Shown: positions 45,122-64,000, numbered from the stretch's first letter. The stretch is DNA of 64,000 bases from a virus (IMGVR_UViG_2541047596_000003); one strand, 5' to 3'. The notes: a model not told the origin generated them from the letters alone. Numbers and translations: made by a program.

Positions 45122-45311
45122 CCTTCACCTCGCGACGATAGATTTCTACTGGCTTAACCGGAATAGCGTTAAAATCCCCTTCATCCAGTGCGGCAATAAA
45201 CGTTAGCGCCAACCGTGCTTCAACACCGCTTAAATACTTGCACCATGCCTCACCGTTATAATCTTCAAAAAGAATAATCACTTTTTTCATGTTTATCTCT
45301 TGTTGTTTCAT
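45111..45311 (-). CDS. Hypothetical protein
   Basis: Start overlaps stop of the Cys-rich Q-like gene. Confidence 0.4.
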   Translation of the reverse strand: MKQQEINMKKVIILFEDYNGEAWCKYLSGVEARLALTFIAALDEGDFNAIPVKPVEIYRREVKDEA

Positions 45312-46039
45312 TATTCACCCCGTGTCACTCGTTTAATTTCGTTATCAGCCCGCGCCTCTTCTTTGAACAATTCAGTAATGGCGTCTTCATAGAAAGCACG
45401 GTATTTCTTCCACCACGTTGATCGGCTTACCGGAAATACAAGCTGATTAACCGCACGCCGGACAAGATCTACAGGGAAACGCGAGTACCCGCGCCCGCCG
45501 CAGTGCTGGCACGTTTTGAATACTGGCATTTCCGCCGCTTCGCTGGCTGCTTTATCCGGTACTTCGCCACGCCCCTTGCACCTCTGGCAATGGTTTTTAA
45601 CGTAGCCTTTGCCGTTGCACCGCGAGCAAACTGTCGATGTGTATTCACAATATGGATTCGGTAAAAGCCCGTTACCTCCGCACTTAGGGCAAACCTTTTC
45701 GGTAGCCGCACTTTGGCAGTAATCCCGAAACGCGAAAACGGCAACAAGAATAATAAGATCATTGCGTTGTTCTTCATTTAATTCCATCACGTATTCGTAA
45801 TCTTTCGCCATAGCCCTTAAACGCTCTGTAAGCAAAATTACGGCCCTGTGTTTTTCAGCTTGCGATAGCTCCATTTTCCCTAAAAAAGCACTATAGCCAA
45901 GCTCTACGCGCGATTGCGCCATACCAGCGGCGGTAAGCGCATCCGTCGTATTAAGTGCATCCGGGGATGTTCCCCGGCTTTCGTCTGATAATCGCGGTGA
46001 TTTGGGAAAGTGGAATTTCAGAATGGATTCTAAATTCAT
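45311..46039 (-). CDS. Cys-rich protein with four CxxCxGxG zinc-finger motifs; possible Q-type antiterminator (242 aa)
   Basis: CPKCGGNG, CSRCNGKG, CQRCKGRG, CQHCGGRG; position just downstream of rusA as in lambdoid nin-Q regions. Confidence 0.45.
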   Translation of the reverse strand: MNLESILKFHFPKSPRLSDESRGTSPDALNTTDALTAAGMAQSRVELGYSAFLGKMELSQAEKHRAVILLTERLRAMAKDYEYVMELNEEQRNDLIILVAVFAFRDYCQSAATEKVCPKCGGNGLLPNPYCEYTSTVCSRCNGKGYVKNHCQRCKGRGEVPDKAASEAAEMPVFKTCQHCGGRGYSRFPVDLVRRAVNQLVFPVSRSTWWKKYRAFYEDAITELFKEEARADNEIKRVTRGE

Positions 46040-46221
46040 TATTTGCCCCCATAGCGAGCAATAAGGCGTTTGCGATCAGAAATGGTTTGCACCAGTTTTC
46101 TTTCAAGCTCTTTCAGCGCAAGTAATTCCTGCATGTGAAAAGCCTGGATTCGTCTGACTGTCGCTAAATCATGCTCGTCACGTTGAACATCTATTTGCAG
46201 ATCTTTAATTTCGTTTTTCAT
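46039..46221 (-). CDS. Hypothetical small coiled-coil protein (60 aa)
   Basis: ORF coupled between rusA and the Cys-rich gene. Confidence 0.4.
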   Translation of the reverse strand: MKNEIKDLQIDVQRDEHDLATVRRIQAFHMQELLALKELERKLVQTISDRKRLIARYGGK

Positions 46222-46625
46222 TGCTCACCCCACATATTAGTCGCATATTCGTTAATATCCGGTAGCAGGTCGCCGCGTTCGCATACCTTAATAAACAATC
46301 GCCCGCCTTTTACCTTCCGGCAGCGGACAATTTTTATTGAGTCGATTTGCCCATCATCATTCCAGAATCCGGCACAAGTAAGGCTGTCAAAAAGGCATTT
46401 TGGGATATTATCAAGATCTCTGACCCGGTTATCCGGCGGCGCGGCATAAATGGCGATTGCCAGTCGGCAAGATAGGTTAATGTCTAAATTTAATAATTCG
46501 ATGATGTCTTTTACTTGTTCCCGGTATTCCTTCCCCACTTCGCTGATATAGTGAAAACCTCGTGAATGTCGGTAATATCGGTTATTAGATGGCGGGTAAG
46601 GTAGGCTAAATGTATACTCGTTCAT
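46218..46625 (-). CDS. rusA: Holliday junction resolvase RusA-like (135 aa)
   Basis: PYPPSNNRYYRH motif and D..D.....K..FD.L....FW.DD pattern as in RusA. Confidence 0.8.
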   Translation of the reverse strand: MNEYTFSLPYPPSNNRYYRHSRGFHYISEVGKEYREQVKDIIELLNLDINLSCRLAIAIYAAPPDNRVRDLDNIPKCLFDSLTCAGFWNDDGQIDSIKIVRCRKVKGGRLFIKVCERGDLLPDINEYATNMWGEQ

Positions 46626-47227
46626 GCTGCCTTTCTCCTTAAGGCGTCCAATTTTGCCTGATAGATGTTTATTAGCTCCTTACATTCTGCGATCGTCCAT
46701 TTATGCGTATCATTGTTGTTCTCCAGAGCTACCACCCTGGCGAGGCCAATTTTTCGAATCAGCGCCGGGCGATACCCTCCGATGTTGCCGTCTAGTGTCT
46801 GGTTGCAGTGCCTACATTGCTTATGGCAATTATCCTCGTTGAAGCGAAGGTGTCCGGCGGCGGCTACCGTCCTGTAATGACCTGCATCCCACCCGCATTG
46901 CTCACCGTAGTAAGTCCCGCAAGATATACACGGCAAGCGCGCGTCACGTTCGCGAATATAGGCGTTAAATACATTTTGAACTTGTTTGATCCAATAACTA
47001 CGCGGATTTAACTGTTTACGCTTCCGGTTGCGTTCTTCCCTCTGGCTATCACGGCGTTTCTTCCGCTCCATAGCCTTCATAGCCTTCTCACGGTCGCGGC
47101 ATAGCTGGTCAAACTTCAGTTCTTCCAGACATTCATCGCTGCACCACGTTTGATTGTGATATTTAGGCTCAAAAAAAACGCCGCAGCATTTGCAACGGCG
47201 TCTTATGGGTTTTTTAGGGTTTTGCAT
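46622..47227 (-). CDS. ninG: NinG-like protein
   Basis: Strong similarity to recalled lambda NinG (RRRCK..C...F, PRSYWIKQ, LPCISCGT, WDAGHYRT.AAA..LRFNE.N.HKQC); start at internal ATG 47227 with GGGGTGG RBS. Confidence 0.8.
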   Translation of the reverse strand: MQNPKKPIRRRCKCCGVFFEPKYHNQTWCSDECLEELKFDQLCRDREKAMKAMERKKRRDSQREERNRKRKQLNPRSYWIKQVQNVFNAYIRERDARLPCISCGTYYGEQCGWDAGHYRTVAAAGHLRFNEDNCHKQCRHCNQTLDGNIGGYRPALIRKIGLARVVALENNNDTHKWTIAECKELINIYQAKLDALRRKAA

Positions 47228-47241
47228 AAAAACCACCCCGA

Positions 47242-62297: not shown

Positions 62298-62495
62298 ATG
62301 AATAAGGAGTTAGATTTAACCATTGAAGACTTTAGCACTATTGCGGAATACATGCGCGGTGACGATCCTGATAAACCTGTTGTGGTTGATATGAGATACT
62401 TAAAAAGCGCTTTCATGACAAGCTCACGTCTAATTTCTTTGCAGGCGATCATGTATGCGCGGGCGCAGTGGAAAAACAGTAACGGTGTATTATGA
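62298..62495 (+). CDS. Hypothetical small protein
   Basis: ORF on operon strand; overlaps ninB start. Confidence 0.4.
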   Translation: MNKELDLTIEDFSTIAEYMRGDDPDKPVVVDMRYLKSAFMTSSRLISLQAIMYARAQWKNSNGVL

Positions 62496-62923
62496 GGCAA
62501 ATTAGATTTGAAATAGTAAACGACGCCGTAAAAGAAAACGCTATCAGGCAGATAAGAGAGATCCAGCCTGATAGCAAAAGCCCGCTGATAATTACCATCC
62601 AGGAGAAAACCCGCTCGCTAAGCCAAAATAGCCTTCTATGGGCGTTGCTAACCGACATTAGTGATCAGGTTAATTGGTACGGTAAGAAGCTGTCGCCGGA
62701 AGACTGGAAAGCGGTATTCACCGCCGGGCTTAAAAAATATGGCGTCGTGCCTAATCTGGATAAATCCGGCTTCGTTGTATTGGGAACATCTACAAGTCGA
62801 ATGAGTAAATCAGAATTCAGTGAACTAATCGAATTGATCTACTCGTTCGGCGCTGAGCATGGCGTTCAGTGGTCAGGTGATACAAAATTAAACGAGGAAT
62901 TTATAAAACGCTGGGGGCAATAA
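62492..62923 (+). CDS. ninB: NinB-like recombination protein (143 aa)
   Basis: Close similarity to recalled lambda NinB/Orf (VTIQE..RSL.QN..LWA.L.D.S.QV.W.G..L....WK.VFTA.LK, SRM...EF.EL.EL...FG.E.GV.WS). Confidence 0.78.
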   Translation: MRQIRFEIVNDAVKENAIRQIREIQPDSKSPLIITIQEKTRSLSQNSLLWALLTDISDQVNWYGKKLSPEDWKAVFTAGLKKYGVVPNLDKSGFVVLGTSTSRMSKSEFSELIELIYSFGAEHGVQWSGDTKLNEEFIKRWGQ

Positions 62924-63099
62924 TGGTTGAGTATTTTAAAGCTAAACCGACCGGGATTTATTACAAGGTAGAAAATGGTAATGTGTTTTATCTTAATCGC
63001 GCGGCTAATGAGTGGCGAGAGTGTCAGTGCTACTACCTGAGAGATATTAGAAATCATCCACATTATTTTATTAAAGTTGACGATGTACCAGTGGCATAA
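62923..63099 (+). CDS. Hypothetical small protein (58 aa)
   Basis: ATG overlaps ninB stop (TAATG). Confidence 0.4.
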   Translation: MVEYFKAKPTGIYYKVENGNVFYLNRAANEWRECQCYYLRDIRNHPHYFIKVDDVPVA

Positions 63100-63113
63100 T
63101 TGAGGATAAACAA

Positions 63114-63770
63114 ATGAGTAAATCAAAAGCAATCGGTGTGATTAGCCATCGCACTAACCCTGAATGCTACCCATCGTTTGAAGTATCGACATGCAGGGAA
63201 GAATATAATTTTGGATCATGTTATTTAGTTGGTGTTCGCGCTGATCGCGGCACTTATACTGTTATGGCGGCAAGCTGGAAGTTTGATAAATATGCCAATT
63301 TATCTAATAAAGATGATGATGGCATGAACAAAGAAAGTGAAATCATTGACGAATTAATCGAAGATGAGCGGCATGATTGCGATACGCCAGAAGTTACGGA
63401 ATGGATGGCAGGAGAAAAGCCTCCATGCGGAGTATGGCTTGAGCTTCTAGATCCTGTCGATGGTCGGAAATATGTTATTCTGAAATACAAGTATATAAGT
63501 GATCGCCTTGCTCTTTTTGTAGAAATGGATGCGCCTGATTTTGAACAAGCCGGGGAATGGAAGCATTTCGCTCATAAGTTGTATGTAGATCCGAAAGAAA
63601 AAATACTGGCTGAAATTGCGTTTGCACTTGCTACTAAGGTTATCGGTGAAGATGCTGCAAAAGAAATTGATTTTAACCGCGACAACGAATTTTCGTGCGA
63701 TTATCGCAATATGGCGCAAGCTATTATAGACGGATGTATAGGACACGTTGAATACACGGGGGGTGAATAA
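63114..63770 (+). CDS. Hypothetical protein (218 aa)
   Basis: ORF on operon strand. Confidence 0.45.
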   Translation: MSKSKAIGVISHRTNPECYPSFEVSTCREEYNFGSCYLVGVRADRGTYTVMAASWKFDKYANLSNKDDDGMNKESEIIDELIEDERHDCDTPEVTEWMAGEKPPCGVWLELLDPVDGRKYVILKYKYISDRLALFVEMDAPDFEQAGEWKHFAHKLYVDPKEKILAEIAFALATKVIGEDAAKEIDFNRDNEFSCDYRNMAQAIIDGCIGHVEYTGGE

Positions 63771-64000
63771 TGGATAAAACCGGGACAATTCTTCTTAGTC
63801 GCCCTGCCATCTGCCGTATGCTGGGGGGAATTAGCAGGGGAACGTTTTATTTATGGCGTAAAAAGTGGGAACGGAACGGAACTCCGTTCCCGGCCCCTGT
63901 TGATGTACTTGGTACCGGGCGTGGCGTTATGTACCGCTATCAGGACGTAATGCAGTTCTTTGATCAGATTGGTTTAACGTCAGCCAAAGATAATACATAA
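63770..64000 (+). CDS. AlpA/excisionase-like small DNA-binding protein (76 aa)
   Basis: GTFYLWRKKW....FPAPV...G.GVMYRYQDVMQF resembles AlpA/Xis-type HTH; stop codon is the last triplet of the window. Confidence 0.45.
   Translation: MDKTGTILLSRPAICRMLGGISRGTFYLWRKKWERNGTPFPAPVDVLGTGRGVMYRYQDVMQFFDQIGLTSAKDNT

Follow-up and report, generated by a model that had tools for sequence, protein, structure and literature searches.

In the common order of phage lambda, int, xis, the recombination genes, N and cI stand on one side and cro, the replication genes, nin, Q, the lysis genes and the structural genes on the other, and in both lambda and P22 int is co-directional with xis. Coliphage mEp021 (MH706966.1), whose genome has been public since 2018, is the archetype of the mEpimmI group. 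Two papers, of 2023 and 2025, put this group forward as a possible new family of coliphages from the gut (Valencia-Toxqui et al., 2023, Arch Virol 168:92; Negrete-Mendez et al., 2025, PMC11893012). The group is defined in the 2025 paper, which reports 48 syntenic genomes; integrase cassettes of four types have been swapped within the group, and its prophages include one in E. coli M1/5 with a type I integrase at ydaM (dgcM), the integration site for this integrase type (PMC11893012, Table 2). The repressor of mEp021, Rep021, was shown experimentally to confer immunity (PMC11893012). In the part of that paper which cites Valencia-Toxqui et al. (2023), Gp17 of mEp021 is stated to antiterminate at three nut sites, and the legend of its Fig. 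7 places one of these upstream of the repressor gene but on the other strand, another before gp17 and the third after the methyltransferase gene. Here we analysed a 64,000-nucleotide stretch of viral DNA (IMGVR_UViG_2541047596_000003; the window, positions 45,122 to 64,000 of which are the 19-kb region referred to below), which carries a prophage whose early genes are turned round relative to its late genes when compared with lambda and P22.

The window very probably contains one intact 55-kb mEpimmI prophage inserted in the 5' end of dgcM, its odd layout being the fixed architecture of that lineage. The last 16,001 nt of the window differ from the E. coli M1/5 chromosome (NZ_CP053296.1) by 10 mismatches and no indels (99.94% identity). 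In M1/5, the Xis-like gene at the window edge is followed by a convergent tyrosine integrase gene, an att core and then the host genes dgcM, smrA, ogt and fnr; no second late-gene set was present in the M1/5 flank examined beyond position 64000. The two att cores enclose 55.2 kb, the size of mEp021-type genomes, and the flank and the paired cores together indicate a single 55.2-kb prophage in the dgcM 5' end. The mEpimmI features tested, namely the repressor, the Gp17 arginines, the nut positions, synteny, and the integrase with its site, were all found. The repressor has HTH and S24 domains and 95% identity to Rep021 over 215 aa. The Gp17 translation, read by eye, runs ...NA-R17-E-R19-R20-R21-I-K-R24 and includes the conserved arginines of the group, R17, R19, R20 and R24 (PMC11893012). 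BoxA-like 17-mers with downstream hairpins occupy the three published nut places, the sites being assigned by position and not by published sequences. Order and orientation equal those of mEp021 for every gene compared, core synteny included. The type I integrase (Phage_integrase and Arm-DNA-bind_3 domains in Pfam) is 90% identical to that of mEp021 and is associated with the dgcM 5' site.

Functions were assigned by Pfam and PHROGs scans of window proteins, and from the mEp021 annotation for collinear genes (Table 1). An earlier reading made from the sequence alone (the sequence-only reading) had claimed that the nin, Q, lysis and structural genes are co-directional with the repressor gene, erf and ssb, and this was borne out, with support from Pfam and PHROGs for every label; for the ninF product the PHROGs match was to a family of unknown function only. 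The lysis, head and tail genes run on along the minus strand to about 10.3 kb. The same reading had the nin genes split between the two arms, and indeed ninB lies on the plus strand and ninF and ninG on the minus strand. When the strands of the key genes were rechecked by Pfam all proved correct, with no mis-assignment, and the sign of the GC skew changes at about 55-56 kb, an independent fit to the strand switch.

The unusual layout is a trait of the lineage and not private to this prophage. DNA matches of the region were confined to mEp515, mEp010, mEp554, mEp044, mEp013, mEp021 and MagusPhagus (87-91% identity). The five best phages span 83-90% of the region at 87-88% identity, each in a single collinear place, while phages outside the group share at most about 400 bases with it, and the remainder of the prophage gave the same matching pattern. 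Gene-by-gene tblastn against mEp021 produced a strictly monotonic map of about 60 genes (62-98% identity) with orientations kept; each module in the deposited mEp021 annotation is oriented as in the window, and mEp021 and five more isolated phages have exactly the same layout. When IMG/VR was scanned with a NinB alignment, 30 loci of this ninB type were returned, at 96-100% NinB identity, and 50 lambda/P22-type loci, at about 54%, with none in between. All 30 of the former carry ssb, erf, gp17 and cI on the minus strand and then the HTH gene, initiator, helicase and ninB on the plus strand; those reaching far enough all continue with the Xis-like gene (plus) and int (minus), and four circularly permuted contigs then go on to the tail-fibre gene J (minus). 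In the circular form, int lies downstream of J across attP. At the 50 lambda/P22-type loci, where the sequence extends downstream, ninB is followed on the same strand by ninG/rusA, Q and S,R; an integrase gene downstream of ninB was found at none of them, nor was the mEp layout. The helicase-ninB-Xis end was matched in 35 of 5426 complete E. coli genomes (27 covering at least 80% of the query), and among the 15 E. coli matches listed most have an annotated integrase beneath the match. A single-protein NinB search of genome contigs gave no matches; a search of the same kind of contigs with the NinB alignment gave lambda-type copies only, with no mEp-type locus in other species. Most of these copies are on 48-kb low-coverage contigs from unrelated genera and look like lambda contamination.

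Identity to mEp021 was 93% for Gp17, 97% for the helicase, 98% for NinB and 84% for Q, and the three nut positions and the dgcM (ydaM) integration site are shared. Unlike mEp021, the prophage has about 5 kb of extra small genes between Q and the holin gene, and its replication arm is without the HNH gene (mEp021_10) and the N4/N6 methyltransferase gene (mEp021_05); ssb is just 62% identical and the 218-aa open reading frame (ORF) just 68%. The mEp021 equivalent of the nuclease-like Zn-ribbon/T5orf172 gene is larger, and an extra HNH gene lies near it.

Likeness to P22 extends over much of the early region: the C2 repressor (40%), Erf (52%), gp12 helicase (57%), NinB (54%), NinG (51%) and gp23/Q (34%) have counterparts, as do the gp18 C-terminus (35% to the initiator C-terminus), Rz (32%) and the abc2-like gene, and both phages have an N-type antiterminator with boxA/boxB sites and the internal order erf-N-repressor-initiator-helicase-ninB. 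In contrast to P22, the block here points the other way with respect to att and the ninG-Q-lysis-structural genes, int and the Xis-like gene converge instead of being co-transcribed, and the prophage has siphovirus structural genes and a third nut site; cro, c1 and c3 were not recognised in it. With lambda the prophage shares the tail tip genes J, I, K, L and M (27-47%), Q (35%), NinB (53%), NinG (53%), Rz (32%), CI (34%) and Nus-dependent N and Q antitermination. It differs from lambda in having its late genes on the repressor strand and replication genes that face att, Erf/SSB in place of Exo/Bet, a helicase of its own in place of P, and Q 6.8 kb from the probable late promoter.

In formal terms, the map is that of lambda and P22 in which the early block has been reversed against att and the nin-Q-lysis-structural block. 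In P22, erf, c2, the gp18 C-terminus, gp12 and ninB have both the order and the relative orientation seen in the window, whereas ninG, gp23 and Rz have the opposite relative orientation. By homology, the prophage has the N/Q antitermination and CI-type immunity of a lambdoid phage; its gene order is not lambdoid, the early block being flipped against the late block and att. In a reading that we hold slightly less probable than not, the early block was inverted, a promoter/operator-like/nut cassette was duplicated before ninF, Q is driven by a third early promoter, on the repressor side, and not by read-through from the N promoter, and the flip bars viable lambdoid recombination. We infer that an ancestral lambdoid-type layout gave rise to the arrangement by inversion. 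The early block would have been kept internally, as recombination genes, N and cI on one side and early promoter, replication genes, helicase and ninB on the other. One break would lie between ninB and ninF and the second between the distal end of the recombination operon and the Xis-like gene; because the first falls within the ancestral nin region, the nin genes would have come to stand on different arms. The integrase gene is convergent with the Xis-like gene, unlike in lambda and P22, so a separate reversal of int would be needed.

The DNA around nutR2 suggests a separate early promoter for ninF-ninG-rusA-Q, which would be a second copy of the promoter and nut cassette of the replication arm. 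Eighty nucleotides around nutR2 align with the replication-arm promoter and nut region (56005-56165). The shared parts are a -35-like CCTTG(T/A)TC, TCCATTTTGTA(T/A)ACTT with the -10, and a similar boxB; the boxA segment ATGCTCTTTAAAAATCCGG is identical at 19 of 19 positions, and about 60 nt of leader are deleted in the nutR2 copy. Comparison of 34 distinct nutR2 copies, from IMG/VR and from isolated phages, shows TTGT in every -35-like hexamer and little or no change in the -10 block; the stretch before the -35 is variable, as is much of the spacer. Covariation is seen in this set at the outer boxB pair (G.T in 27 copies, A-T in 4, C-G in 3). Stability of the candidate boxB hairpins was indistinguishable from that of shuffled sequences, and their support comes from position, boxA and the one covarying pair. 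A nut site modifies only the polymerase transcribing it. Polymerases from the PL-analog promoter have already passed nutR1, so that the best account of a second functional nut site 7.4 kb further on is a promoter a short way before it. Duplication of the cassette would restore a lambda-like unit of early promoter, nut, nin and Q after the flip; if so, the repressor-side arm would comprise two tandem early units followed by the late operon, and not one long operon.

Several points weigh against this reading. The inversion is a formal relation and not a demonstrated event, the protein identities to lambdoid phages being 24-57%; it requires a second reversal, that of int; and no intermediate arrangement was found among the IMG/VR ninB loci. 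The terminase and head genes (portal, capsid) have no detectable lambda or P22 homologues, so that independent assembly is possible. The -35 of the proposed nin-Q promoter, TTGTTC, is weak (3/6), and the promoter was not among the hits of a simple promoter scan of the 19-kb region. Promoters may also be already mapped or excluded in Valencia-Toxqui et al. (2023); our literature search on nutR2 returned PMC11893012 only, and one for further lambdoid phages whose early region is inverted returned nothing relevant. Recombination between the two inverted copies of the promoter and nut cassette could yield an alternative isomer; this was considered and rejected, as the isomer is absent at all 46 nutR2 copies, each followed by ninF/ninG, and at all 30 ninB loci.

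It is also possible, with a somewhat lower probability, that the map was assembled independently from exchangeable modules (replication ending in ninB, recombination, and ninG-rusA-Q), the order of the blocks reflecting the way in which these modules habitually travel. The low amino-acid identity to lambda and P22 (24-57%), a terminase, portal and capsid that match neither phage, the bimodal NinB identity (96-100% versus about 54%, no intermediates) and the swapping of four integrase cassette types within the group (PMC11893012) are all in keeping with such assembly. Set against this, five early markers share both order and relative orientation with P22, and the split in the nin genes coincides exactly with the border of the block, for which one break in a contiguous nin region is the more economical account. 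A recent rearrangement private to this prophage, such as an inversion in a resident lambdoid prophage that left it defective, is very improbable. Nothing more than the first impression of an odd order speaks for it; the order is shared by six isolated plaque-forming phages (PMC11893012) and 30 IMG/VR contigs, no lambdoid phage gives a high-identity DNA match, and the structural genes are all full length relative to mEp021. The sequence-only reading had offered either a mosaic or rearranged prophage or a genuinely distinct lineage: the second stands, the layout being identical in mEp021 and in 30 of 30 IMG/VR contigs, and the first finds no support, for want of a close lambdoid DNA match and with protein identities to lambda and P22 of only 24-57%. 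That two prophages lie side by side, the true late genes of the replication arm being past 64000, which the same reading had named as a result that would refute its view, can practically be dismissed: prophages do cluster at the locus, the Rac end being about 4 kb to the left, but ttcA, dbpA, fnrS and zntB separate Rac from the element, the integrase, att core, dgcM, smrA, ogt and fnr follow beyond the window, and one pair of att cores surrounds 55.2 kb of mEp021-type size.

Both the lineage with its conserved architecture and this prophage itself are in the literature already, and the present observation changes little. PMC11893012 contains no discussion of orientation relative to lambda or of promoters, so the description of the flip and of the duplicated cassette are small additions. 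The first makes the relation to lambda and P22 explicit, as one flipped early block with a break inside the nin region; the second offers a testable explanation of the third nut site, in terms of an early promoter that was duplicated and supplies nin-Q. A third addition is a proposed structural reason for the non-lambdoid behaviour of these Nus-dependent phages in recombination tests. If the reading with the inversion and the duplicated cassette is true, the flip would by its structure hinder viable recombination with lambdoid phages of the same gene pool. Where PMC11893012 cites Kameyama (1999), immunity-I mEp phages are said to give no viable hybrids with lambda; this fits the flipped block, and sequence divergence alone would also explain it.

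Table 1. Coordinates of features in the window and its right flank
Feature	Position	Strand	Remark
Rac prophage end	1-5900		~4 kb left of the mEpimmI element
recE	503-3103		Rac part
RalA sRNA	4155-4333		Rac part; Rfam
intR	4654-5889		Rac part
Host genes ttcA, dbpA, fnrS, zntB	within 1-10133		between Rac and the element
FnrS sRNA	8643-8760		host part; Rfam
Host dgcM (ydaM) 5' fragment	10094-10145		first 52 nt; just left of left att core
Left att core GTCCTGTCTGGA	10134-10145		12 nt; direct repeat with right copy
Late genes	12864-38509	-	76-98% amino-acid identity to mEp021, fully collinear
Tail J	12864-17834	-	then I, K, L, M tail genes
Three short reverse islands in tail region	19956-20663, 21538-21965, 24522-25511	+	against late operon
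Tape measure	22052-24394	-
Capsid and connector genes		-
Portal	32258-33652	-
TerL	33780-35294	-
TerS	35269-35784	-
Rz-like	37359-37847	-
Lysozyme	37817-38308	-
Holin	38309-38509	-
Strong terminator hairpin	38552-38534	-	directly upstream of holin
Accessory region between Q and late terminator	38583-45311	-	~28 tightly packed small genes; stops/starts overlap
Q antiterminator	45311-46039	-	PF03589, E=1.5e-32
Small ORF between rusA and Q	46039-46221	-
rusA	46218-46625	-	RusA (Pfam)
ninG	46622-47317	-	NinG, E=1e-66
ninF	47242-47418	-	91% identity to mEp021 gene annotated 'putative NinF'
nutR2 boxA/boxB	47481-47445	-	between methyltransferase gene and ninF; published position
Promoter-like element TTGTTC-16-TATACT	47522-47495	-	directly before nutR2
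Repressor-side early operon	47578-54802	-	gp17, erf, ssb, abc2-like, ~12 small genes, two methyltransferases
Second DNA methyltransferase	47578-48336	-	phrog_757
Dam	49321-49869	-
abc2-like anti-RecBCD gene	53023-53301	-
ssb	53317-53721	-	SSB
erf	53721-54365	-	ERF, E=7e-42
N-like antiterminator gp17	54512-54802	-	phrog_271, E=1.3e-13
nutR1 boxA/boxB	54895-54856	-	before gp17; published position
PL-analog promoter TTGACT-17-TATATT	55179-55151	-	best match in 19 kb, 10/12
Repressor-gene terminator	55297-55280	-	strong hairpin
CI-type repressor	55303-55950	-	HTH_3 + Peptidase_S24
Replication-arm promoter-like element TTGATC-16-TAAACT	56010-56037	+
nutL boxA + GNRA-type boxB hairpin	56113-56147	+	published position
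Winged-HTH protein, 85 aa	56256-56513	+	first gene of replication arm
Replication initiator	56517-57563	+	Lin1244_N + O-like C-terminus
Iterons, 4 x GGGTCATGA	56903-56948	+	11-nt spacing; inside initiator gene
Zn-ribbon/CapR/T5orf172 gene, then exonuclease-like gene		+	between initiator and helicase
DnaB-type helicase	60033-61448	+	E=5e-77
MarR/Lrp-like gene		+	between helicase and ninB
ninB	62492-62923	+	NinB, E=6e-47
218-aa ORF		+	between ninB and Xis-like gene
Small HTH protein, 60 aa	63818-64000	+	ends at window edge; Xis-like by position
Integrase terminator-like hairpin	63891-63867	-	inside Xis-like gene
Tyrosine integrase 3' end	63964-64000	-	full gene = equivalent 63964-65154 (M1/5 RefSeq annotation)
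Right att core GTCCTGTCTGGA	equivalent 65329-65340		outside window (flank sequence L002 17330-17341); direct repeat
10-mer CCATTTTGTA, minus-strand copies	21458, 21849, 24437, 47499	-
10-mer CCATTTTGTA, plus-strand copies	24463, 32437, 47564, 55181, 56024, 60004	+

Each arm appears to be organised like its lambda counterpart, and regulation is most likely lambda-like: the CI repressor would control divergent early promoters, the N-like Gp17 would act at the three nut sites, and Q at the late promoter and terminator. Both hexamers of the PL-analog element are invariant and its spacer variable in 19 distinct sequences of relatives, as would be expected if it is a working promoter, the counterpart of lambda PL. 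The leader of about 250 nt between this element and nutR1 (54900-55150, minus strand) is almost invariant in the same number of distinct relatives; it includes the annotated 37-codon ORF mEp021_16 and had no match in Rfam, and its conservation may simply reflect the shared immunity region. TCCATTTTGTATACTT is a candidate Rep021 operator. Upstream of ninF, a CRP-like palindrome, (T/C)GTGA-N6-TCACA, lies at 47540-47555 (minus strand) between two inverted copies of CCATTTTGTA, and its arms are kept and its centre variable in the 34 relatives. Before ninF, downstream of the methyltransferase gene, GGCGCTTTTCGCC was predicted as a terminator but was not counted as one because its 3' arm is neither conserved nor covarying in the 34 copies.

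Late transcription probably starts just upstream of the holin gene, where the sequence points to a late promoter and Q site 6.8 kb from Q in this prophage and about 2 kb from it in mEp021. The stop codon of Q overlaps the next start codon (TAATG), leaving no gap for a promoter directly after Q. The counterpart of the terminator hairpin upstream of the holin gene, t5, was shown experimentally (PMC11893012, Fig. 7 legend). Conservation across the group starts about 85 nt upstream of this hairpin (10 distinct sequences), in a block that extends to 38640 and contains TTTGTA-18-TAAAAT; this conservation makes the block the probable place of the late promoter and Q-utilisation site. The main variable region is the accessory region between Q and the terminator, which measures about 2 kb in mEp021 and is about 5 kb longer here; nine of ten tested small genes after Q match PHROG families, all of unknown function. 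One of the reverse islands in the tail region holds an antirepressor-like gene 98% identical to mEp021_71.

On the replication arm, the sequence-only reading had placed an HTH gene. The gene is present; its product (annotated HTH/MarR-like) is closer to the N-terminal domains of phage replication initiator families in PHROGs (phrog_4617, E=4e-23) than to Cro. It may be the split N-terminus of an initiator of the lambda O or P22 gp18 type, but it showed no pairwise similarity to either, and its PHROG profile matches were to N-termini from other initiator families. No homologues of cro, cII or cIII were recognised in the prophage. The GGGTCATGA iterons are a candidate replication origin within the initiator gene, a location shared with the origins in lambda O and P22 gene 18. 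The Zn-ribbon/CapR/T5orf172 gene contains a 186-nt tandem duplication (1.9 copies, 85% match) at 57945-58305 (plus strand).

The integrase gene, which starts just beyond the window, overlaps the convergent Xis-like gene by 37 nt. Repeats of the form TTTGGTCAC..TTTGGTACACA are present inside both prophage ends, at about 10225-10250 and at about 17178-17200 of the right-flank sequence L002, and are candidate arm-type Int sites. In an Rfam scan no match fell inside the prophage, RalA and FnrS, both in the host part, being the only ones.

A 10-mer, CCATTTTGTA, is present in 10 copies in the prophage against 0.35 expected, and in none in the host part of the window, lambda or P22; mEp021 has seven copies at equivalent places. 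It overlaps the -10 of both the replication-arm and the nin-Q promoter-like elements and abuts the -35 of the PL-analog in reverse orientation, and another copy precedes the helicase gene. In the tail region it follows each reverse-oriented island, before the tape-measure/minor-tail genes, and points in the late direction. The 10-mer may be a lineage-specific promoter core or repressor operator.

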